A stretch of 64,000 nt of DNA from an uncultured Bacilli bacterium (GTDB lineage Bacteria > Bacillota_I > Bacilli_A > RF39 > UBA660): NCBI GenBank assembly GCA_934096035.1, contig CAKOKX010000001.1, positions 694,989-758,988 of the forward strand, in the 5' to 3' direction. The translations under genes were made by a program, and so were the position numbers. Shown here one piece after another: positions 917-57,143 of the stretch. The notes below the pieces were generated by a model that searched no databases, had not been told where the DNA came from, and saw nothing but the letters and a program-made list of their open reading frames with translations. Every line of letters starts with the position of its first letter. The stretch's first letter is position 1.

Positions 917-3087
917 ATTACATTAAAGGAAAATTAAAAAAACTTATATTTTATAGTAAAGAAAGTGGCTTTGTAGTCGCTTTATTTCGCGTTAAGGAGT
1001 CTAATCTAAAAGAAGTTGAAGCAAATAAAACAATAACTATAACAGGTTCGTTTCTAGACCCAAGTATAGATGTACCCATGACTTTATATGGAAATTATAA
1101 AAAAAATGAAAAGTGGGGCATGCAATTTGTAGTGGATTCTTATGAAGTAGAAAAACCAACTACCAAAGAAGCTGTTGAAGAATTTTTATCTAGTCCTTTC
1201 GTCGAAGGTTGTGGTGAAGTAACAGCTAAAAGAATCGTGGAAGAATTCGGAGAAAAGGCTATTGATATAATAAAAAATGATAAAGATAAATTATTATTAA
1301 TCGAAGGAATAACTGATAAAAGAAAAGAAAAAATATATGCTTCACTAATTAATTATGATAAAAGTGGAGATACAATTATTAAGTTACAAAATTTAGGATT
1401 TTCTCCGGTAGAATGTTACAAAATATATAATTATTTTAAAGCAGATATTGATTATATTTTAGAAAATAACTTTTATTTAATAAGTGAAATAATTGATTTT
1501 AGAAAAGTGGATAGTATATATGTAAATGCTTACGGAGATAAGACAGATGCTAGAGTATATGCCTGTATTTTAGAAAGTATGAAAATGTTATCTTTTACAA
1601 ACGGCGATACTTATTATTATGCTGATGAAGTAAAAAAAGAATTATTAAAGGAATTTTTTATAGAGCTTACTGAAGATGTTTTTAACGAATGTTTAGATTA
1701 TCTTGAAGAGAATAATGATGTAGTGCGTGTTGAAAAAAGAATATATTTAAAATCGTACTATGAAAAAGAAATAAATATTGCCATGAATTTAAAAAAGATA
1801 GATAGTAAAGCTCCGAAGATGTTTTATAATATTGATGAAAAATTAAAGGAACTTGAAGAAAAACTTAAAATTAATTATAATGAAACTCAAGAAAAAGCAA
1901 TAAAAGGAGCCTTAAATAATAATATAACCATTATTTCCGGGGGACCTGGAACAGGTAAAACAACCATTATAAATGCCATTGTTAAACTATATATTGAAAA
2001 AGAAAAATTAGGATCTGCAGATATTATGGAAACTATAGCATTATTAGCCCCAACTGGTAGAGCAGCCAAAAAAATGAATTCATCTACAGGTATTCCAGCT
2101 TACACAATTCATAGGTACTTAAAGTGGTATAAAGATAGTAATGAGTTTGTTTACAATGAATTTAATAAAACTCATCACAAATTAATTATTGTCGATGAAG
2201 TAAGTATGATTGATGTTGATTTATTTAATGCATTATTAAATGGGATAAATAGCAATATTAAGCTTATTCTTGTCGGAGATACATTCCAACTTCCAAGTGT
2301 GGGACCAGGTCTTGTTTTAAATGAGCTTATTGAAAGTGATTATTTTAATTATATACCTTTAAATCAAATTTATCGTCAAAGTGATAACTCTTATATTCCA
2401 TTTTTAGCTAAAGAAATAAAAAATAATGATTTAAGTGAAGAATTTCTAACTAAAAAAGATGACTATAACTTTGTAAAAGTAGACTCAAGTAATATTAAAG
2501 AAGCAGTAACTCAGATTACAAATTATTCTTTAAGTAAAGGTCTTGATGAGAGAAATGTTCAAGTATTAGCACCAATGTATAAGGGAGAAGCTGGAATAGA
2601 TGCATTAAACGTTATCTTGCAAAACATTTATAATCCAAGTAAAAGAAATAAAGAAGAAGTAATATATGGTGATTATATTTATCGGGAAGATGATAAAGTT
2701 CTTCAGCTAGTTAATGATTTAGATAATAATGTATTTAATGGCGATATCGGCTTTATTGAAAGAATAACTGGTAACAAAATAATCATCGATTTTGATGGTA
2801 ATAAAGTAGAGTATGAGAAAAAAGACTTAAAAAACATTAAACATGCCTATGCTATAAGTATTCACAAGAGCCAAGGTAGTGAATTTATGCATGTTATAAT
2901 GCCAATAAGTACCAGTTACTATAAAATGCTTTATAATAAATTAATTTATACTGGAGTAAGTAGAGCTAAAAAGAGTCTAACTCTTGTCGGAGATCCAGCC
3001 GCTTTCCAAAGAGCAGTTAATAATAATTATTCATCAAGTAGAAAAACAAGTTTAAAAGAACAAATAAGTATAGTATATAATAAATAA
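913..3087 (+). CDS. recD2: RecD2-type ATP-dependent DNA helicase
   Basis: Walker A motif GGPGTGKTT; Walker B motif LIIVDEVSM; a helix-hairpin-helix N-terminal domain; a RecD-like SH3/C-terminal domain; 724 aa. Confidence 0.8.
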   Translation: MNYIKGKLKKLIFYSKESGFVVALFRVKESNLKEVEANKTITITGSFLDPSIDVPMTLYGNYKKNEKWGMQFVVDSYEVEKPTTKEAVEEFLSSPFVEGCGEVTAKRIVEEFGEKAIDIIKNDKDKLLLIEGITDKRKEKIYASLINYDKSGDTIIKLQNLGFSPVECYKIYNYFKADIDYILENNFYLISEIIDFRKVDSIYVNAYGDKTDARVYACILESMKMLSFTNGDTYYYADEVKKELLKEFFIELTEDVFNECLDYLEENNDVVRVEKRIYLKSYYEKEINIAMNLKKIDSKAPKMFYNIDEKLKELEEKLKINYNETQEKAIKGALNNNITIISGGPGTGKTTIINAIVKLYIEKEKLGSADIMETIALLAPTGRAAKKMNSSTGIPAYTIHRYLKWYKDSNEFVYNEFNKTHHKLIIVDEVSMIDVDLFNALLNGINSNIKLILVGDTFQLPSVGPGLVLNELIESDYFNYIPLNQIYRQSDNSYIPFLAKEIKNNDLSEEFLTKKDDYNFVKVDSSNIKEAVTQITNYSLSKGLDERNVQVLAPMYKGEAGIDALNVILQNIYNPSKRNKEEVIYGDYIYREDDKVLQLVNDLDNNVFNGDIGFIERITGNKIIIDFDGNKVEYEKKDLKNIKHAYAISIHKSQGSEFMHVIMPISTSYYKMLYNKLIYTGVSRAKKSLTLVGDPAAFQRAVNNNYSSSRKTSLKEQISIVYNK

Positions 3088-3118
3088 AATTGTTCATAAT
3101 AATACCAGAGGTGGAAAA

Positions 3119-3280
3119 ATGAAAAATATGTTAAAAGCCGTTGGGCTACTTGGTGCTATGGCAGCTATCGGTGGGGGTATTTATTTAATGCAAGATAAAA
3201 AAACAATGAAAAAAGCTGGTAAAAAAGTAATTAGTGCCATGGATAGTGCAGAAAGCATGATAGCTAAGAAAATAAACTAA
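3119..3280 (+). CDS. small membrane protein (53 aa), not in the ORF track
   Basis: A GAGGTGG ribosome-binding site lies 6 nt upstream of the ATG. There is one hydrophobic helix (AVGLLGAMAAIGGGIYL) and a basic tail. A terminator hairpin follows the stop directly. Confidence 0.4.
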   Translation: MKNMLKAVGLLGAMAAIGGGIYLMQDKKTMKKAGKKVISAMDSAESMIAKKIN

Positions 3281-3307
3281 AAAAGGATAAAAACTATCCT
3301 TTTTTTC
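3281..3307. terminator. bidirectional rho-independent terminator
   Basis: An AGGATA/TATCCT stem flanked by an A-run and a T7 run. It overlaps the stop codon of the minus-strand ORF 3294..3992. Confidence 0.5.
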
Positions 3308-3992
3308 GTGTTAAATAACAATCACATTCATATTCATTAATTGCTCTTAGCTTTTCATCAGCAATTCTTTTAATCATCATAGCTTGTAACTTTTCTTTAA
3401 TTTCTGGTATTCTTTTAGGTACATTAAATGGATCCACATAAAATTCTTTTCTATACAAAGGTGCATACATAGCTTCATTTAATAAAAATCCATCAATATC
3501 AAGAGTGCCAAATAAAGAAACAATTCCATTTTTGGTAGAAACATCTTCTCGACATATAAAGTTTTCTTCTTCTTTATCAAATATTATTCTTGTAAAAGAA
3601 TCAGACATTTCTAAATTATGTTCAAAAGAATAAATAAATTCTTTGTATAAACCAGGAATAATTAATTCCTTGAAAGGCAATAAATCTCTATTAAATAAAT
3701 TACCATAATCTTTTTTTATTAGAAATCTTTCTCTTTGAATATATTCTTTTTCTTGATTATGATGGAAGATAAATAAAGTATAACAATTTTGTCTAGTACA
3801 TGGTTCACTTTTTTCTTTTTCAATAATAGCAAAATTTTCATCATCTAGCCATTTAAAAATAAATTTTCCTTTATGAAAATACAAAACAACTCCATTTACA
3901 TCTTTAACTTTTATTGAATCTTTATTAATAATTACCATTAAATTCATCTTTGGTATTATAGTTTCTGTCATACAAATCTCCTTTTTCTTCAT
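3294..3992 (-). CDS. hypothetical protein (232 aa)
   Basis: A long ORF with a plausible start. I recognise no motifs in it. Confidence 0.5.
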   Translation of the reverse strand: MKKKEICMTETIIPKMNLMVIINKDSIKVKDVNGVVLYFHKGKFIFKWLDDENFAIIEKEKSEPCTRQNCYTLFIFHHNQEKEYIQRERFLIKKDYGNLFNRDLLPFKELIIPGLYKEFIYSFEHNLEMSDSFTRIIFDKEEENFICREDVSTKNGIVSLFGTLDIDGFLLNEAMYAPLYRKEFYVDPFNVPKRIPEIKEKLQAMMIKRIADEKLRAINEYECDCYLTRKKG

Positions 3993-4062
3993 ATTATAGC
4001 ATATACCTTAAAATATGACAATTTTTTTATGTTTTTTGTGCTAGTATAAAGCTGGTGATGAT

Positions 4063-4506
4063 ATGAAAAAGTATTTAAAAATTCTGGGAGTAGCAATTAT
4101 ATTCGGGGGAATATTAGCTTATCTTTTTTATTATGATATTAATAAAGAGGTTCGTGCTATATCCAAAAAAGAAGAAGTTGTAACCCTTTTTCAAGTCGGA
4201 GTATTTAAAGACTACAATAACGCTTCAGCTTTTTCTGAAACTTTTCCATCAAGCCTAATTTATAAAGATAATGACTATTATAGAGTTATTATTGCTATAA
4301 GTTATCACGAAGAGACAAAGCTAAAGTTAGAATCAATATATCAAAATAATGAGATAGAATATTATGAAAAAGAAATCAGAATAAATAAAGATTTTATTGA
4401 AAAAATAAGTAATTATGAATCAATAATTTTAAAAAGTAATAAAGATGAAGTAATAAATAATGTTAACAATAGTATTTTAAATATATTTTCATCATATATT
4501 AATTGA
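4063..4506 (+). CDS. membrane protein with a SPOR-like domain
   Basis: An N-terminal transmembrane helix, then FQVGVFKDYNNASAF...YYRVIIAIS, which resembles the SPOR peptidoglycan-binding fold. Confidence 0.4.
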   Translation: MKKYLKILGVAIIFGGILAYLFYYDINKEVRAISKKEEVVTLFQVGVFKDYNNASAFSETFPSSLIYKDNDYYRVIIAISYHEETKLKLESIYQNNEIEYYEKEIRINKDFIEKISNYESIILKSNKDEVINNVNNSILNIFSSYIN

Positions 4507-4525
4507 TTTTATCCATAATAAAAAT

Positions 4526-5185
4526 ATGATAAAAAAATATAAAGATTACATTTTATTATTAATAGTATTTTTATTATTTATATTCTCAGGTAGTATAAAT
4601 AGATTTTTAATTGCTATAAATCCTAATTTAGATACTAAAAATATTGAATTAAATTATGATAAATATCTAAAAGAAGAACTAGATAATATAAAGAAAATAA
4701 ATAATATAGAATTTAATAATGATTTGAATCTACAAGTAAGTAGAGTTAAATATCGTAATGTTTATGAATATTCTGATACACTAACTATTTATAAGGGATT
4801 TAAAAATAATGTTTTTGTTAATGACGTTGTTTTAAATAATGATGGTCTTATAGGAATTGTAACTAAAACTTATGATTATTATTCTATCGTAACACTAATA
4901 ACTAATAAAAGTAGTAATATATCCGTTAAAATAAATGACGCTATAGGCATTCTTAAAGTTATTGATAATACTTTGGTAGTAACCAATATAAATAATTATG
5001 AAAAAGTAAATATAGATGATGAAATATATACTTCAGGTCTTGGTAATTTACCAGATAATATTTATATAGGAAAAGTAAAAAGTATTAATTTAAATAATAC
5101 GGAAATAGAAAAAGTAATTGAAGTAGACCTAAATGATAGATTAGAAAAATTAGATTATGTCTTTATAAGGAGTAACCATGATTAA
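4526..5185 (+). CDS. mreC: rod shape-determining protein MreC
   Basis: An N-terminal transmembrane helix; a DGLIGIVTK motif matching the MreC GLVGKV motif; and TSGLGNLPDNIYIGKV matching the MreC TSGLGG-FP-G-PVG motif. Confidence 0.6.
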   Translation: MIKKYKDYILLLIVFLLFIFSGSINRFLIAINPNLDTKNIELNYDKYLKEELDNIKKINNIEFNNDLNLQVSRVKYRNVYEYSDTLTIYKGFKNNVFVNDVVLNNDGLIGIVTKTYDYYSIVTLITNKSSNISVKINDAIGILKVIDNTLVVTNINNYEKVNIDDEIYTSGLGNLPDNIYIGKVKSINLNNTEIEKVIEVDLNDRLEKLDYVFIRSNHD

Positions 5186-26780: not shown

Positions 26781-27013
26781 AATTTCCTCCAAAAGAAAAC
26801 CCAAAGGCGCCATGCATTGATAAAAACCCGCTCTCGCGAGGTGGGCATCACATGAATTACTTTAGGATCCTTACTCACTTAATGGTTAAGTCTTCTACAC
26901 CATAATTCAATTAGATTCCCTTATTATCTATCTAGTCGGTTTTATATTGACATAGACATTTACCCTTTAGGTATCTTAATTATATCAAAATAATTTTTTT
27001 AAAACAAGTCATA

Positions 27014-39424: not shown

Positions 39425-39655
39425 ATTCTTTACTCCTCCTTAAATATAAAAAATTCTATAAATTAATTTAGCTTAAGGACGAGTATAACCCGCGGTGCCA
39501 CCTTAATTCATAGAATTCTATGCATCTTAATTTGCTATATCGGGCATTTCCGTTTACTTTCAAGGTACTATCTTCACTAACTTAAGTTACTAGTTTTCAC
39601 CATCCACTAGTTCTCTATAAACTATCAGTTACCTACTGGTTTACCAAATAAATCA
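39425..39655 (-). promoter_or_regulatory. T-box riboswitch leader of aspS
   Basis: On the minus strand, AATTAAGGTGGCACCGCGGG (plus-strand 39489..39508) matches the T-box consensus AANNNGGGTGGNACCGCGG. AGAGA and AGTA K-turn-like motifs lie upstream. A GAAGAUA candidate specifier (plus-strand 39569..39575) contains the Asp codon GAU followed by a purine. Confidence 0.75.
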
Positions 39656-51571: not shown

Positions 51572-52984
51572 TTAATATTGTCTTCCAATATATAGTCTTG
51601 TTTTAGCTTCCTTACCACATACAGTACATGGTCCAGTTACTTCTTCATTTTCAATTAAACATCTTGATTTTATACCAAAATCATCTTTAATTTTATTTTC
51701 ACAAGTAACATCACCACACCAATTAATTTTAGTAAATCCACCATCTTTTGTCGTAGCAATTTCTCGAAGTTCATCATAAGTTTTTGCATCATATATCATA
51801 GAATCTCTTCTTGTTTTAGCTCTTTCAAACATATCCTTTTGAATTGTTACAAGTAACTCTTTAACTCTAGGTACTATTTCATCAAAAGTAACAATTATTT
51901 TTTCTAAAGTATCTCTTCTTACTAAAGTTACATGACCATTTTCCAAGTCTCTTTTACCAAGTTCAATTCTAATTGGATACCCTTTAACTTCTGCTTCTGC
52001 AAATTTAAAACCTGGAGTTTTATTAGATTCATCAACTTTAAAAGTAATATTATTTTCTTTTAAAGTATTTTTTAAACTCTCTAATTCAGTTGCAACATCT
52101 CCGATAGGAACAATTATAACTTTAAAAGGTGCAATCATTGGTGGAAGAACTAATCCATGATCATCACCATGAGTCATAATTATAGCTCCAATCATTCTAG
52201 TTGAAACTCCCCAGCTAGTTTGATATGGAGTTTTAAGTGTATTATCACTATCTGTAAATTTAATACCAAATGCTTTAGCAAAATGATTACCAAAGTAATG
52301 ACTTGTACCATTTTGAAGAGCATAACCATTATACATCATAGCTTCTAAAGTATAAGTTTCTTCAGCGCCGGCAAACTTTTCTTTTTCAGTTTTTCTTCCT
52401 GTAATTACCGGCAAAGCTAAATAATCCTCTTGAAAAGTTTTATAAACATTAAACATTTTTAAAGTTTCTTCTCTTGCTTCTTCAGCAGTTCTATGCATTG
52501 TATGGCCTTCTTGCCATAATATTTCACGGCTTCTAAGAAAAGGTCTTGTAGTTTTTTCCCATCTAACTATTGTACACCATTGATTATAAAGAATGGGTAA
52601 ATCTCTATAAGTGTTAATTATTTTTTTATAATGGTCACAAAATAATACTTCACTAGTTGGTCTTACACACATTCTTTCTTCAAGTTTTTCTTGTCCTCCA
52701 TATGTAACCCAAGCAACTTCTGGAGCAAACCCTTTAACATGTTCTTTTTCAACGTTAAGAAGTGACTCAGGGATAAACATTGGCATTTGTACATTTTCAT
52801 GACCAGTTTCTTTAAACATTCTATCCATGTTTTTTTGTATTTCTTCCCAAATGGCATATCCAAGTGGTCTAATTATCATACTTCCCTTTACACTTGAATA
52901 ATCTACTAAATCTGCTTTTCTACATACATCTGTATACCATTTAGCAAAATCTACATCTCTATTTGTAATATCTTTTACTTCCAT
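51572..52984 (-). CDS. proS: prolyl-tRNA synthetase, short archaeal/eukaryal-like form
   Basis: Class IIa motifs and a C-terminal zinc-binding domain (CxxC...CxxC); 470 aa. Confidence 0.8.
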   Translation of the reverse strand: MEVKDITNRDVDFAKWYTDVCRKADLVDYSSVKGSMIIRPLGYAIWEEIQKNMDRMFKETGHENVQMPMFIPESLLNVEKEHVKGFAPEVAWVTYGGQEKLEERMCVRPTSEVLFCDHYKKIINTYRDLPILYNQWCTIVRWEKTTRPFLRSREILWQEGHTMHRTAEEAREETLKMFNVYKTFQEDYLALPVITGRKTEKEKFAGAEETYTLEAMMYNGYALQNGTSHYFGNHFAKAFGIKFTDSDNTLKTPYQTSWGVSTRMIGAIIMTHGDDHGLVLPPMIAPFKVIIVPIGDVATELESLKNTLKENNITFKVDESNKTPGFKFAEAEVKGYPIRIELGKRDLENGHVTLVRRDTLEKIIVTFDEIVPRVKELLVTIQKDMFERAKTRRDSMIYDAKTYDELREIATTKDGGFTKINWCGDVTCENKIKDDFGIKSRCLIENEEVTGPCTVCGKEAKTRLYIGRQY

Positions 52985-52993
52985 ATTCTCACC

Positions 52994-53212
52994 TTATTCT
53001 GCATTAAATTCTTTTAATTCATTATCTTCAGTTAAGATTTTATTAACTTTTTTAGTGGCATCATTTAATTTTTCTCCACAATATTTAGCCAATTTCATAG
53101 CTTGTGTATATTTATTTATTGCATCATCCAAATTAACATTTCCGCTTTCAAGTTCTTTTACAATACCTTCTAATTCTTGTAATGATTCTTCAAAATTTTT
53201 ATTTTCTTCCAT
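52994..53212 (-). CDS. xseB: exodeoxyribonuclease VII small subunit
   Basis: 72 aa; FEESLQELEGIVKELESG is canonical XseB. Confidence 0.8.
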   Translation of the reverse strand: MEENKNFEESLQELEGIVKELESGNVNLDDAINKYTQAMKLAKYCGEKLNDATKKVNKILTEDNELKEFNAE

Positions 53213-53243
53213 AACTTATTTCCTTTCTTCATTATTATACCAA

Positions 53244-53786
53244 TTATTTTAAATTAATCCAATACCTATTTAAAGGATCATTATTCCATATAACAGTATT
53301 TTCTAAAATTCCACCTTCAGAAATAATAGTCTTATTACTTACAATATTTTCAACATCTGCAGTTATTAAACAATTTTTTATACCTAAACTTTTAGCTATT
53401 TCTAACCCCATATTAAGTTGTAATTTACCATAGCCTTTACCACGTTCACTCGGAGTAATCGAATATCCAATATGACCTCCAAAATTAAATAAAAAGTCAT
53501 TTAACTCGTGTCTAATACTAATAGAACCACATACTTTATTATCACTCATTCTTTTTAAAAATAATGTTGTACACGGAACATAACCATCTCTTAAATCAAT
53601 ACCATTTTTTTCATTTGCTTTTTCTTTAACCCAATCTTCATAAGATGTTGCCTCTTCCAAATTAGCAAGGCCTGAATATTGCCATGGAAGCCCAGCATCA
53701 ACAACTTTAATTTCATCAAGCATTAAAAGAGCACTTTTTTTATCATTATTATCTGGTATAACTAATTTTAAATCATTCATTTTCAT
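53244..53786 (-). CDS. GNAT-family N-acetyltransferase
   Basis: An acetyl-CoA-binding motif (R/Q-x-x-G-x-G/A) at SERGKGYGKLQL. Confidence 0.6.
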   Translation of the reverse strand: MKMNDLKLVIPDNNDKKSALLMLDEIKVVDAGLPWQYSGLANLEEATSYEDWVKEKANEKNGIDLRDGYVPCTTLFLKRMSDNKVCGSISIRHELNDFLFNFGGHIGYSITPSERGKGYGKLQLNMGLEIAKSLGIKNCLITADVENIVSNKTIISEGGILENTVIWNNDPLNRYWINLK

Positions 53787-53888
53787 TCCTCCTTAAATTA
53801 AATTGTATTTACATTATTTTATTTTGCTTGACACATTTTTATTTTGGTGTATTATTGTTATTTTTTGTTCAAAAAATGTATCACAAGC

Positions 53889-55148
53889 CTATTTTTCTAC
53901 AACCTTTGCTTTAATATTTCCCTCATGTAATTTAATATTAATAATATCATCAATATTTACATCATTACTTGACTTAATTACCTTATCATTAATAGTTGCT
54001 AAAGAATAGCCTTTTTCTAAAATACCAAGAGGATTTACTAGTTTCAAAGTATTAATAAGTAAATTATATTCATTTTTCTTCTTATCAATCAAACTCATTG
54101 GATTTTGAATTACATATGACATTTTTATTTTATTTAGTTTCATTTCATTATTTTGTAATATTACTTTAATATCTTTATTTAATTTATCAAGCAAAGCATC
54201 TAATTTTTGTTCTTTAATTTCATACATACTCATAGGATTTTTTAATACAAAACTATTTTTTAAGCTTCTCCATTTAATGAATTTAGTATTTATCATATTT
54301 TTAATATTTTTATTAAGTCTAATTTTATAATTATTTAAAAGTGTATTAATATCAATAACAGTCGGTACAGCCATTTCAGCAGCTCCCGTTGGAGTTGGTG
54401 CCCTTAAATCAGCCACAAAATCCGCAATCGTCCAATCTATTTCATGTCCAACAGCGCTTATAATCGGAGTATTACATTCATAAATTGCTTTCGCAACAAT
54501 TTCTTCATTAAAAGCCCATAAATCTTCAATAGATCCGCCACCACGACCAACTATAATAGTATCAACACCAAATGCATCAGCTTTTTTAATTTGTCTAACA
54601 ATATCCGGTGCAGCATCACGTCCTTGTACTAAGCATGGAAATAAAATTGCTTCACAAATTGGATATCTTCTTCTAATTGTACTCATTATATCTCGAACAG
54701 CTGCCCCAGTTGATGCCGTAATAACTCCAATCTTTTCGGGAAATTTAGGAATTGCTTTTTTATGTTCTGGATTAAATAATCCTTCACTTGCTAACTTTTT
54801 CTTTAACTTTTCATATTCTATATATAAAGCACCAAGTCCATCAGGTTCCATTTTTTCAATATAAATCTGATAACTGCCTTGTGCAGGATAAGCACTTATT
54901 CTACCTTCAACTAAAACATTCATTCCATCTTCAGGTACAAATGTAAGTTTAATTGCACTACTTTGAAACATAACTGCACTTATTCTAGAATTATCATCTT
55001 TCAAAGTAAAATATAAATGTCCTCTGGTATGATTTTTAAAATTACTAATTTCCCCTTTTAAATAAACCTTATTTAAAAAAGAATCTTTATCTAAAATGTT
55101 TTTTATATAATTATTTAAATCACTAATATTAAGATAGTCTTTTTCCAT
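53889..55148 (-). CDS. xseA: exodeoxyribonuclease VII large subunit
   Basis: An OB-fold N-terminus, a catalytic core with GRGGGS, and a coiled-coil C-terminus; 419 aa. Confidence 0.85.
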   Translation of the reverse strand: MEKDYLNISDLNNYIKNILDKDSFLNKVYLKGEISNFKNHTRGHLYFTLKDDNSRISAVMFQSSAIKLTFVPEDGMNVLVEGRISAYPAQGSYQIYIEKMEPDGLGALYIEYEKLKKKLASEGLFNPEHKKAIPKFPEKIGVITASTGAAVRDIMSTIRRRYPICEAILFPCLVQGRDAAPDIVRQIKKADAFGVDTIIVGRGGGSIEDLWAFNEEIVAKAIYECNTPIISAVGHEIDWTIADFVADLRAPTPTGAAEMAVPTVIDINTLLNNYKIRLNKNIKNMINTKFIKWRSLKNSFVLKNPMSMYEIKEQKLDALLDKLNKDIKVILQNNEMKLNKIKMSYVIQNPMSLIDKKKNEYNLLINTLKLVNPLGILEKGYSLATINDKVIKSSNDVNIDDIINIKLHEGNIKAKVVEK

Positions 55149-55932
55149 CTAAAATACCCCTTTCTAAAAGTAAGTTTCCAATCAATTCATAATATTTTTT
55201 ATAAAGTATTAAAGAATATCCTTGATTTTCTAGAGTAAAGCCCATTTTATTAAGTTTTTTCATTTCCAAAAGAATTAAATCTGGAGTTAAAGTATTATAA
55301 AATTCTAAAACAATATCATAAAATTCCTGAGCAGAAGTTGCAAGAAAATACTCTAAAGACTCAATATTCTTAAGTACACATATAGGCAATCTATTATCTA
55401 AACTATCAGCACACTTATAACTTTTTAATCTATCACAAAAAAATAACTTTGGTAATAAATTTGCTGCTCCGAAATCACTAAAAACATATTCGTTATCTAA
55501 AATGCATAAATCTGCTACACCATCACGAATTAATATACCTAAATTTCCTAAGTTGCGATCACTATTCATCATAAAAATATCAAAAAGATAAACTCTAATT
55601 AATTGATAAGTAAGTTTTTCACTATCCTTTGGATAATTCTTTTCAAAGAACATCCATATATCATATAATCCATTAGATTTAATCCCTAATTGATTTCCAT
55701 CTTTAAAAATTCCATCATTATTAAAACTATAACTTAAATAATAATAATCTCCATCAACTTCAATAATATAGTCTTTTGCACATATAATACCAAGTTTTTC
55801 TGCAATAGCATTAGCAAATAATTGATCTCCTGGATCCATAGCATTTTTACAATAATATTCTTTACCTTTAATTTTTATGAACTTACCATCATAATGAGCC
55901 AAATTTCTTTTTATTTTCATTGGTATTAACAT
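55129..55932 (-). CDS. atypical small protein kinase-like protein (PI3/4-kinase- or HipA-like catalytic motifs)
   Basis: MMNSDRNLGNLGIL resembles the DRHxxN catalytic loop, and VFSDFGAANL resembles the DFG activation-loop motif. 267 aa. Confidence 0.4.
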   Translation of the reverse strand: MLIPMKIKRNLAHYDGKFIKIKGKEYYCKNAMDPGDQLFANAIAEKLGIICAKDYIIEVDGDYYYLSYSFNNDGIFKDGNQLGIKSNGLYDIWMFFEKNYPKDSEKLTYQLIRVYLFDIFMMNSDRNLGNLGILIRDGVADLCILDNEYVFSDFGAANLLPKLFFCDRLKSYKCADSLDNRLPICVLKNIESLEYFLATSAQEFYDIVLEFYNTLTPDLILLEMKKLNKMGFTLENQGYSLILYKKYYELIGNLLLERGILDGKRLS

Positions 55933-55933
55933 A

Positions 55934-56329
55934 TTATTCCTTAATATATTTATCTAAAACTGCATTAATTATTTTTCTAACAGAATCATCACAATATTTC
56001 TTAGCTAATTCAATAGCTTCATTAATAACAACAATTTCTGGAGTATCTGTAAATTTTAATTCATATAATCCCATTCTTAATATTGCAGCTCCAGTTTTAT
56101 CTATTCTATCAATGGTCCACCCTTCAATATATTTATTAGCAATTTCATCTAAACTATTTTTATATGTAGCTACGCCATAAACTATATCTTTAACAAATTC
56201 ATTATCTACATTCAAATTCTCTTTTATTACTTCATCAATATTAAACGGGACCCCACGAGTTTCATATATATCAATTTGATATAAAATAACCATAATAATA
56301 TTTCTAAGTTCACTTCTAGATTTTGCCAT
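55934..56329 (-). CDS. nusB: transcription antitermination factor NusB
   Basis: 131 aa; RSELRNIIMVILYQ...GAAILRMGLYEL is canonical NusB. Confidence 0.85.
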   Translation of the reverse strand: MAKSRSELRNIIMVILYQIDIYETRGVPFNIDEVIKENLNVDNEFVKDIVYGVATYKNSLDEIANKYIEGWTIDRIDKTGAAILRMGLYELKFTDTPEIVVINEAIELAKKYCDDSVRKIINAVLDKYIKE

Positions 56330-56389: not shown

Positions 56390-56863
56390 TTAATTTACTA
56401 AATTTCCTTCAACAATTAATTGGTATCCTTTCCTTATTTGATTACAAGTAGTTAAAATAACTTGATTTTCTTCCATTTTTATATTAATTTTACCATTTTT
56501 TACTTCATTTCTAATACTACTTACAATATAGTGATTTACTTTATTATTAAATTTCAAAATAATTTCATCACCAATATCAAGATATCTTAAATCATTAAAA
56601 TACGCTAATTTTCCTGTTCCTGAATGAGCAGCTAATAAATACGTATTTTTTATATTAGTATTAATCAACATTACATTTTTATTTACATCATTATTTTTAT
56701 TATTTTCATCATAAAAACCTAAATACATATTTATTTTAGGAATAATAAGTACTCCATAATAATTTACTATTTCTTCATGATAATTACTTTCTTCAATTGC
56801 TTCTATATTATAATTACATCCACATAATAATAAACAAAAAAGCACTATAATAACAATCTTCAT
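56390..56863 (-). CDS. sortase-family transpeptidase-like lipoprotein
   Basis: A lipobox LLLCGC, then LAAHSGTG (catalytic His region) and VILTTCN (the TLxTC Cys motif). Confidence 0.45.
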   Translation of the reverse strand: MKIVIIVLFCLLLCGCNYNIEAIEESNYHEEIVNYYGVLIIPKINMYLGFYDENNKNNDVNKNVMLINTNIKNTYLLAAHSGTGKLAYFNDLRYLDIGDEIILKFNNKVNHYIVSSIRNEVKNGKINIKMEENQVILTTCNQIRKGYQLIVEGNLVN

Positions 56864-56976: not shown

Positions 56977-57087
56977 TTATTTACTTTTCTTTTTATTATT
57001 TTTGTTAATTAATCTTACTTTTACACCTTTATATAAAGCAAATTGTTTTTTTACACCTTCAGGTAAATTTTTCTTAAATGTTTTCAT
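56977..57087 (-). CDS. small lysine-rich ORF (36 aa), not in the ORF track
   Basis: A GAGGTG ribosome-binding site 5 nt upstream. The protein is MKTFKKNLPEGVKKQFALYKGVKVRLINKNNKKKSK. A terminator hairpin AGGAAGA-loop-TCTTCCT with a T-run follows at about 56935..56965. Confidence 0.3.
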   Translation of the reverse strand: MKTFKKNLPEGVKKQFALYKGVKVRLINKNNKKKSK

Positions 57088-57143
57088 AAACGCACCTCAC
57101 TTCTTTCTTAAAGATTATATCATAAAAAATAATAATTTATCAA

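Follow-up and report, generated by a model that had tools for sequence, protein, structure and literature searches.

HipA-type kinases are, to our knowledge, found almost only as toxins of mobile toxin–antitoxin (TA) modules, the exceptions being CtkA and the single-gene kinases HipH (YjjJ) and HipL. In Bacillus subtilis, the gene order around nusB and xseA is yqhY-nusB-folD-xseA-xseB-ispA, with folD filling the slot between nusB and xseA. Here, we describe a 64,000-nucleotide (nt) stretch of contig CAKOKX010000001.1 from an uncultured Bacilli bacterium (“the window”), in which the nusB-xseA slot holds a gene for a compact HipA/CtkA-type kinase-like protein (“kinase A”), and a gene for a GNAT acetyltransferase lies between xseA and xseB. 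The novelty is an antitoxin-less HipA/CtkA-like kinase that is fixed in the nusB-xseA operon; the GNAT itself is ordinary.

Criteria for HipA-homologous TA kinases have been given by Gerdes et al. 2021 (PMC8262856). The gene for CtkA is carried by the mobile element tfs3, and its product targets host cells (PMC5536186). The Pfam family HipA_2 (PF20613), an uncharacterized “HipA-like kinase” family, is grouped with HipA_C by KINtaro (bioRxiv 10.64898/2026.09.18.752743), and in our literature search PF20613 appeared solely in a database comparison and PDC-M03 in a single paper, while a search on DinD/Bro-N and defense yielded nothing informative.

Coordinates are those of the window, and gene order is read on the minus strand, on which all window features given below lie. 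The order is sortase, nusB, the 267-aa open reading frame (ORF) of kinase A, xseA, a 102-bp spacer, the GNAT ORF, xseB, and proS. An initial annotation of the window had already called the 267-aa ORF between nusB and xseA and the GNAT gene between xseA and xseB; both calls are correct, and their coordinates are exact. Both are genuine coding genes, with homologues in many independent metagenomes and a ratio of nonsynonymous to synonymous substitution rates (dN/dS) below 1.

Fold, motifs, and family of kinase A

Judged from its fold and sequence, kinase A (55129–55932, 267 aa) is a compact HipA/CtkA-type kinase with an intact catalytic core and would be an active enzyme. Its sole Pfam match was HipA_2, at 23.2 bits (E = 4.6e-5; cut-off 27) and over profile positions 23–153 of 240. 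The Pfam scan returned no match to HipA_C (PF07804) at E ≤ 1 and none to the PI3/PI4-kinase family PF00454. The AlphaFold2 (AF2) model (predicted local distance difference test score, pLDDT, 86.9) has a very compact N-lobe, and its two-lobe kinase fold superposes on solved members of the HipA/PI3-4K branch (Pfam clan CL0016), with structural scores that are lower for PI3/PI4-kinases than for HipA and CtkA.

The relationship was also visible in profile searches. A profile of 51 family members (A2), with a mean identity of only 29% and some members down to ~25%, matched CtkA (E = 1e-6) and HipT(Lp) (E = 2e-3) among Protein Data Bank (PDB) sequences. The broader A2 was required for this result, as the narrower profile A1 gave no meaningful match to the same sequences. 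A further homologue search with A2 returned 11 proteins only, and little was gained from it.

The residues expected of a kinase active site are nearly invariant among the 51 relatives. Lys29 (codon at 55846–55848), the candidate ATP-binding lysine, is conserved in 50/51 and aligns with the Lys of the HipT(Lp) sequence YILKPQ. The catalytic-loop motif D125-R-N-L-G-N130 (55543–55560) is part of the SDRNLGN (residues 124–130) singled out in the initial annotation, which is real and conserved (D125 in 50, R126 in 48, and N130 in 50 of the 51); in the profile-to-PDB alignment, the DRxxGN of the family falls on FDRHNGN of CtkA and EDMHLKN of HipT(Lp). The DFG motif named in the same annotation turned out to be a chance match. 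These residues, 153–155 (55468–55476), are poorly conserved (D in 9/51, F in 3/51), the position is often gapped, and they are changed already in the close relatives P0007–P0010, so DFG was ruled out as the metal-binding motif. The candidate Mg2+-binding Asp in its place is D146 of D146-N147 (ILDNE; 55492–55497), which is conserved in 50/51 (N147 in 48/51) and falls on the Asp of the CtkA sequence IFDCGS, the ILDN of the family matching IFDC. Of the two assignments in the proposal of a “PI3/4-kinase- or HipA-like” protein, the HipA/CtkA-like one is borne out by the fold and the A2 alignment, while the PI3/PI4 one fails on the unconserved DFG and the missing PF00454 match. The structure comparison that was proposed along with it gave the same answer, as the AF2 model superposes on kinases of the HipA/CtkA branch.

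No HipA-type Gly-rich loop was recognizable in kinase A from sequence and secondary structure; 28 residues precede Lys29, and the sole conserved Gly among them is Gly23, which is present in 32/51 relatives.

Several relatives lie above the HipA_2 cut-off (P0078, 54.9 bits; P0058, 50.0; P0080, 42.7; P0020, 28.9), and PF20613 is assigned to P0002, P0003, P0005, and P0024 in a precomputed table. Among the distant relatives, which include tandem double kinases of 522–560 aa, the tandem proteins P0058 and P0078 pass HipA_C (36–39 bits), and PI3_PI4_kinase is passed as well (36 bits). The kinase family is therefore tied to the HipA branch by transitive homology. By sequence comparison, kinase A stands at the edge of Pfam HipA_2, as its sister or as a divergent member.

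The nusB-xseA slot and its evolution

The kinase A gene is packed tightly between its neighbors. Its ATG lies 1 nt past the nusB stop codon, with an AAGGA within the 3′ end of nusB, and the xseA ATG, preceded by the Shine-Dalgarno sequence GAAAGGGG, overlaps the 3′ end of kinase A by 20 nt. Because the frame abuts nusB and overlaps xseA, kinase A is most likely constitutive and made together with NusB and exonuclease VII; we infer that it is co-transcribed with nusB and xseA and translationally coupled. An extended −10-like element (TGATATAAT; 56359–56351) and an AAGGAG (56343–56338), both read from the sequence, suggest a promoter upstream of nusB. A promoter scan of the region found 47 sites against 44.7 expected, which is the chance level. 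No terminator was found in a scan of the nusB-kinase-xseA unit, and an Rfam scan gave no match in the region. The G+C content is ~25% across the region, with no compositional break.

The kinase family is rare. A word-indexed search of 5.8 billion proteins yielded 13 clusters, and 188 representative clusters were found at E ≤ 1e-3 among 1.84 billion proteins. The nearest genomes that carry it are human-gut metagenome-assembled genomes labeled “uncultured Tenericutes bacterium UMGS686” and “uncultured Bacilli”.

The kinase occupied the same nusB-linked slot in L001–L009, L016–L018, L068, L070, and L074 (L numbers denote related loci). In L001, L004, L017, L018, L068, L070, and L074, it starts 1–11 nt past nusB and overlaps xseA by 4–47 nt. 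The slot was kept at kinase identities of 61% (L001), 49% (L004), 45% (L018), 33% (L070), and 31% (L017), and in L068 (37%) and L074 (29%) it was held by a tandem double kinase. These tandem kinases (L068, 5001–6620; L074, 5001–6569) comprise 522–539 aa, with HipA_C in the N-terminal half and HipA_2 and PI3_PI4_kinase in the C-terminal half. In L016 (29% kinase identity), nusB is followed by the kinase, and xseA is not present. Relatives whose kinase is only 27–45% identical, and whose NusB is 64–75% identical, thus occupy the same slot; therefore, the kinase is a lineage-wide operon member and not a recent insertion, which was ruled out by slot synteny in relatives down to 27% identity. The description of the kinase as inserted into a conserved operon was accordingly misleading. 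In the initial annotation, universal conservation of both genes as housekeeping genes in the clade was to count against the observation, and the synteny comparison shows that the kinase comes close to it. A kinase ORF lies between nusB and xseA in 57 of the 58 fetched loci that hold both genes, a census that is biased because the loci were found via the kinase or GNAT gene. Taken together, the sequence comparisons portray kinase A as an old, vertically inherited, lineage-wide member of the nusB-xseA operon in uncultured gut Bacilli.

The sole exception was L060 (2269–3913), in which nusB and xseA are 14 nt apart and kinase-free; its NusB is 49% identical to that of the window, and dinD, a kinase paralogue, and GNAT are still carried downstream. 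A family member outside the nusB context was seen in L072/L073 (2423–3250): P0050 (275 aa, ~30% identity) follows an unknown 334-aa gene at a distance of 9 nt and precedes recG, on a contig that also encodes CotE.

A mobile-element origin of the kinase was ruled out, as no relatives were found in IMG/VR (profile A3), in GenBank phages (tblastn with both kinases), or in PLSDB plasmids (tblastn with kinase A). No antitoxin gene, either DNA-binding or HipS-like, stood beside kinase A in the window or in 57 related loci, where the neighbors are NusB and XseA. Without a cognate antitoxin gene, kinase A is therefore considered a solitary kinase and not a classical hipBA-type toxin.

Kinase A evolves faster than the genes around it. 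The dN/dS was 0.21–0.44 for the kinase, 0.16–0.30 for GNAT, and 0.03–0.14 for nusB, xseA, xseB, and proS, indicating that kinase A is under purifying but relaxed selection. Orthologous neighbors were 88–100% identical to those of the window while the kinase was 49–85% identical, and between the window and L001 the DNA identity dropped from 92–100% to 43–77% only at 55802–55143, inside the kinase gene. A second case is L051 versus L058 (4900–5790), whose DNA is 95–100% identical over xseA, dinD, and xseB and 53–64% identical over the kinase gene. Their nusB-linked kinases share 42% protein identity, with breaks at the nusB 3′ end and the xseA start; this difference is a clean allele replacement. 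In contrast, 166 of 168 locus pairs with an xseA nucleotide identity of at least 96% had kinases that were at least 95% identical, which, although one clear replacement was seen, ruled out hypervariability within populations. The stable close pairs, the divergence between species, and the swaps with sharp borders therefore indicate that the kinase is stable within species, evolves fast between them, and is sometimes swapped by recombination.

Among the neighboring housekeeping genes, NusB, XseA, and XseB all exceeded the NCBIfam equivalog cut-offs. The tightly packed nusB-kinase-xseA unit is headed by nusB (55934–56329, 131 aa; TIGR01951, 114.4 bits, cut-off 88.35), and xseA (53889–55148, 419 aa; TIGR00237, 483.8 bits, cut-off 180) closes it, while xseB (52994–53212, 72 aa; TIGR01280, 76.1 bits, cut-off 35) follows the GNAT gene. 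A sortase gene (56390–56863, 157 aa; Pfam Sortase, 44 bits) adjoins nusB upstream in most related loci, and downstream, proS (51572–52984, 470 aa; Pfam tRNA-synt_2b, HGTP_anticodon, ProRS-C_1) is syntenic in most of them.

Three further features of the window were recorded. An ORF for a very basic 36-aa peptide (MKTFKKNLPEGVKKQFALYKGVKVRLINKNNKKKSK) lies at 56977–57087; its promoter-like site outscores all others in the region (11/12, with TG), and a terminator-like hairpin lies 3′ of it (flanks at 57143–57114 and 56954–56933). A 35–36-aa gene was called at the matching place in L001–L006, L012–L015, and L018. Elsewhere in the window, Rfam identified a T-box leader (39472–39653, 101.5 bits) and a 6S RNA (26794–26976, 55.9 bits), both unrelated.

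The xseA-xseB interval and its GNAT gene

The product of the gene between xseA and xseB, a 180-aa protein in the initial annotation, was rightly identified there as a GNAT: it passed the cut-offs of Acetyltransf_1 (27.6 bits; cut-off 20.7) and Acetyltransf_3 (25.6 bits; cut-off 25.4), its AF2 model (pLDDT 95.9) has GNAT topology, and it carries an R-x-x-G-x-G motif. The ORF is open from 53786. To judge from the sequence, the most likely start codon is the second ATG (53780), which lies 7 nt past an AGGAGG and gives a protein of 178 aa (53244–53780); all homologues are 177–179 aa. The acetyl-CoA motif R113-G-K-G-Y-G118 (53427–53444) has invariant R113, K115, and G116. In Foldseek, the top matches of the model were MccE, SpeG, YncA, and RimL, with template modeling (TM) scores of 0.6–0.73 at 14–20% identity. 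A phmmer search of the PDB with the protein gave no match, a GNAT profile gave generic RimJ/RimL-type matches only, and NCBIfam gave no equivalog match. No ribbon-helix-helix (RHH)-type antitoxin gene lies beside GNAT, which is flanked by xseB and, at its other end, by xseA or the kinase paralogue, and PADLOC gave no match.

In sister strains and species, this GNAT gene is part of a larger, variable cassette, which a sub-clade carries between xseA and xseB. The commonest arrangement is xseA, dinD (275 aa), the kinase paralogue (269 aa), GNAT (178 aa), and xseB. The Bro-N protein of L009 (10129–10956) is a bona fide DinD (NF008573, 352.9 bits; cut-off 242). The paralogue is 39% identical to the kinase of the window, and in a neighbor-joining tree without support values it nests inside the radiation of nusB-linked kinases, grouping with the L051 allele. 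It follows the Bro-N/DinD gene in sister strains, occurs without dinD in L008, and is only 2–6 nt from GNAT in many loci.

The window has lost most of this cassette. L009 belongs to the same species as the window (neighbors 97–100% identical) and carries the cassette in full. Their alignment runs until 18 nt into dinD and picks up again at the GNAT start, and both ends carry ATAAAAATGAATGA. The same junction was found in L019, from an independent metagenome, which indicates that the deletion is a real allele. Thus, dinD and the paralogue were lost in the window strain by deletion at a 14-nt microhomology near the dinD and GNAT start codons. Of dinD, the window keeps only the leader and the start-codon region, and as a consequence of the deletion GNAT now sits under the dinD leader. 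The spacer between xseA and GNAT (53781–53888) holds the deletion junction (~53774–53787) and the AGGAGG (53793–53788). The “own 100-bp upstream region” once ascribed to GNAT therefore exists as a spacer (102 bp) but is not its own, being homologous to the dinD leader of sister strains.

The contents of the xseA-xseB interval varied across L001–L076, comprising dinD, paralogue, and GNAT; dinD and GNAT; dinD; paralogue and GNAT; a paralogue remnant and GNAT; GNAT; or nothing. In L004 and L006, the cargo is a Mob_Pre mobilization element, and in L074 it is an unrelated 507-aa gene that defied annotation. The interval (53213–53888 in the window) is an insertion/deletion hotspot across the lineage. 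GNAT is an accessory gene and the remnant of the dinD-kinase paralogue-GNAT cassette, and thus not a gene that came by itself. A two-gene module of kinase and GNAT in the window was ruled out, as the nusB-linked kinase occurs without GNAT (L017, L018, L051, L058, L070, L074) and GNAT goes with the paralogue cassette.

Two side observations concern the kinase genes of related loci. Kinase A (L009, 8001–8801) and the paralogue (L009, 10970–11779) share ~60% DNA identity and one exact 27-nt run, coding YYLSYSFNN. Two short low-coverage contigs (L010, 963–1772; L011/L031, 890–1690) are reciprocal chimeras that cross at this run: one reads nusB, a kinase with the N-terminal part of kinase A and the C-terminal part of the paralogue, GNAT, and xseB, with xseA and dinD missing, and the other reads dinD, a kinase with the N-terminal part of the paralogue and the C-terminal part of kinase A, and xseA. 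They are either products of real recombination, by a deletion together with a circle or a duplication, or false joins made by the assembler at k ≤ 27. Separately, L004–L006 carry genes for a HipA_C protein of canonical length (395 aa, 45 bits; 2105–3292) and a 514-aa unknown protein (3537–5081) in the interval between an FAD-dependent gene and the sortase gene. The window has neither, and no HipB-like gene is called beside the HipA_C gene in L004–L006.

Interpretation and comparison with known systems

We favor, with moderate confidence, the reading that kinase A is a solitary, constitutively co-expressed HipA/CtkA-type Ser/Thr protein kinase and that GNAT is an unrelated accessory N-acetyltransferase. 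The conserved motifs indicate that kinase A is probably catalytically active, and its substrate would be a protein rather than a small molecule. In the proposed mechanism, kinase A would be made constitutively along with NusB and exonuclease VII; ATP would be bound at Lys29 and Mg2+ at Asp146 and Asn130, with Asp125 serving as the base in phosphotransfer to Ser/Thr of a protein. The kinase allele is occasionally replaced by a divergent allele via recombination. GNAT belongs structurally with RimL, MccE, and SpeG and would be an N-acetyltransferase that depends on acetyl-CoA.

Several points weigh against this interpretation. The activity of the kinase family is deduced from fold and motifs, kinase A lies under the HipA_2 cut-off and has no HipA_C match, and a HipA-type Gly-rich loop is unrecognizable in its sequence. 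The promoter scan stayed at chance level. A bias affects the synteny census, as the loci were collected via the kinase or GNAT gene, mostly the former, and the steady adjacency may come simply from vertical inheritance of one syntenic block, without any functional tie. Finally, the fast evolution, the allele replacement, the DinD-adjacent paralogue, and the weak PADLOC and PHROG matches suit a role in conflict better than a housekeeping role.

Such a conflict system, which we consider unlikely, would comprise the kinase, its paralogue, DinD, and GNAT, acting as a HipA-like toxin or abortive-infection effector that, when triggered by an event such as phage infection, would arrest growth by phosphorylating an essential factor of translation or transcription. 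HipA acts in this way on GltX and HipT on TrpS. On this view, the variable stretch between xseA and xseB would amount to a small defense hotspot, a proposal that we regard with the same reserve. All characterized close structural relatives of kinase A other than CtkA are TA toxins (PMC8262856), the kinase outpaces its neighbors in evolution and undergoes allele replacement, and the cargo of the interval is variable and includes a Mob_Pre element. In PADLOC, kinase A weakly matched PDC-M66A (2e-5), the paralogue weakly matched PDC-M03A (1.9e-9), and DinD matched PDC-S13 (4e-104); a weak match to PHROG 3162 was also seen. However, the PDC entries are candidates only. Moreover, neither a DNA-binding nor a HipS-like antitoxin was found beside kinase A in any locus, its neighbors always being NusB and XseA, and its position is fixed over a deep lineage, unlike that of mobile TA or defense genes. 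Collections of phages, plasmids, and viral contigs yielded no homologue, the alleles are stable within species with dN/dS below 1, and dinD, the paralogue, and GNAT are lost independently, so they do not form an obligate module.

It is improbable, in our estimate, that the kinase is a lineage-specific regulator whose substrate is NusB, exonuclease VII, or the prolyl-tRNA synthetase encoded nearby. If it were, an ATP-dependent switch would tie into rRNA antitermination, DNA repair, or translation in reduced-genome gut Bacilli, and the fast, species-specific evolution would reflect co-evolution with a partner or phage counter-measures. It would also be the first HipA-type kinase that is a fixed, antitoxin-less component of a housekeeping operon.

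A role in small-molecule modification is doubtful to a like degree. The substrate of the kinase would then be a metabolite, a lipid, or an antibiotic and that of GNAT a related compound, in a pairing for detoxification or resistance comparable to APH/AAC or to the way in which MccE/RimL inactivate aminoacyl-nucleotide antibiotics. The spacing of only 2–6 nt between paralogue and GNAT, the structural matches of GNAT to the microcin C immunity enzyme MccE, to RimL, and to detoxifying acetyltransferases of the YncA/PA4866 type, and the unrecognized HipA-like Gly-rich loop of kinase A are all consistent with it. However, six loci have the kinase without GNAT, the GNAT matches are generic (TM 0.6–0.7 at 14–20% identity), and the kinase matches protein kinases more strongly. 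A pseudokinase or scaffold that keeps the fold without catalysis and instead, for instance, binds NusB or exonuclease VII would suit the unrecognized nucleotide-binding Gly-rich loop, the very compact N-lobe, and the tight coupling with neighboring genes but is very improbable, as Lys29, Asp125, Asn130, and Asp146 persist in 50/51 relatives despite 25–30% overall identity, which is expected only if catalysis is selected.

The reading of kinase A as a solitary protein kinase gives the locus a wider interest. Across a deep lineage of uncultured human-gut Bacilli, a minimal kinase of the HipA/CtkA type, unaccompanied by an antitoxin gene, has stayed in the slot that separates nusB from xseA, with its active site kept while the remaining sequence diverges rapidly. 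If active, it would be a tractable case of how a toxin-type kinase became, by taming or from the outset, a constitutive kinase of the cell, and it would offer the first functional handle on the uncharacterized HipA_2-like proteins of Pfam. The xseA-xseB interval, in turn, illustrates strain-level change in gene content by microhomology deletion in organisms known from metagenomes alone.

Among known kinases, kinase A, as modeled, folds like CtkA and the short Hip kinases and would work like them, but it is not a canonical Hip TA kinase. When the criteria of Gerdes et al. (PMC8262856) are applied, it has the catalytic and Mg2+-binding motifs and lacks the antitoxin neighbor and the HipA_C match. 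Compared with HipA and HipT of the hipBA and hipBST modules and with the short HipG, HipI, HipJ, and HipM (PMC8262856), it is smaller (267 aa versus 279–346 aa), lacks a HipA_C match and a recognizable Gly-rich loop with an adjacent autophosphorylation Ser, has no HipB/HipS/HipN-type neighbor, and holds a fixed position between nusB and xseA. CtkA (JHP940) of Helicobacter pylori, likewise a compact HipA-like Ser/Thr kinase, is only 14–15% identical to kinase A, which, in contrast to CtkA, is chromosomal, lies inside a housekeeping operon, carries no secretion signal, and is limited to a lineage of gut Bacilli. Several relatives of kinase A pass the cut-off of HipA_2; that family is uncharacterized, so membership says nothing on role.

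The GNAT of the window resembles RimL/MccE/SpeG-type enzymes in model superposition, in its Acetyltransf_3 and Acetyltransf_1 matches, and in the R-x-x-G-x-G acetyl-CoA motif, but differs in that the identity is only 14–20% and that no NCBIfam equivalog matches it. The operon as a whole is organized like the Firmicute nusB-(folD)-xseA-xseB cluster of the B. subtilis type, with nusB, one intervening gene, xseA, and xseB on one strand and short spacers. It differs in that the intervening gene encodes a kinase fold instead of folD and in that xseA and xseB are split by variable cargo.

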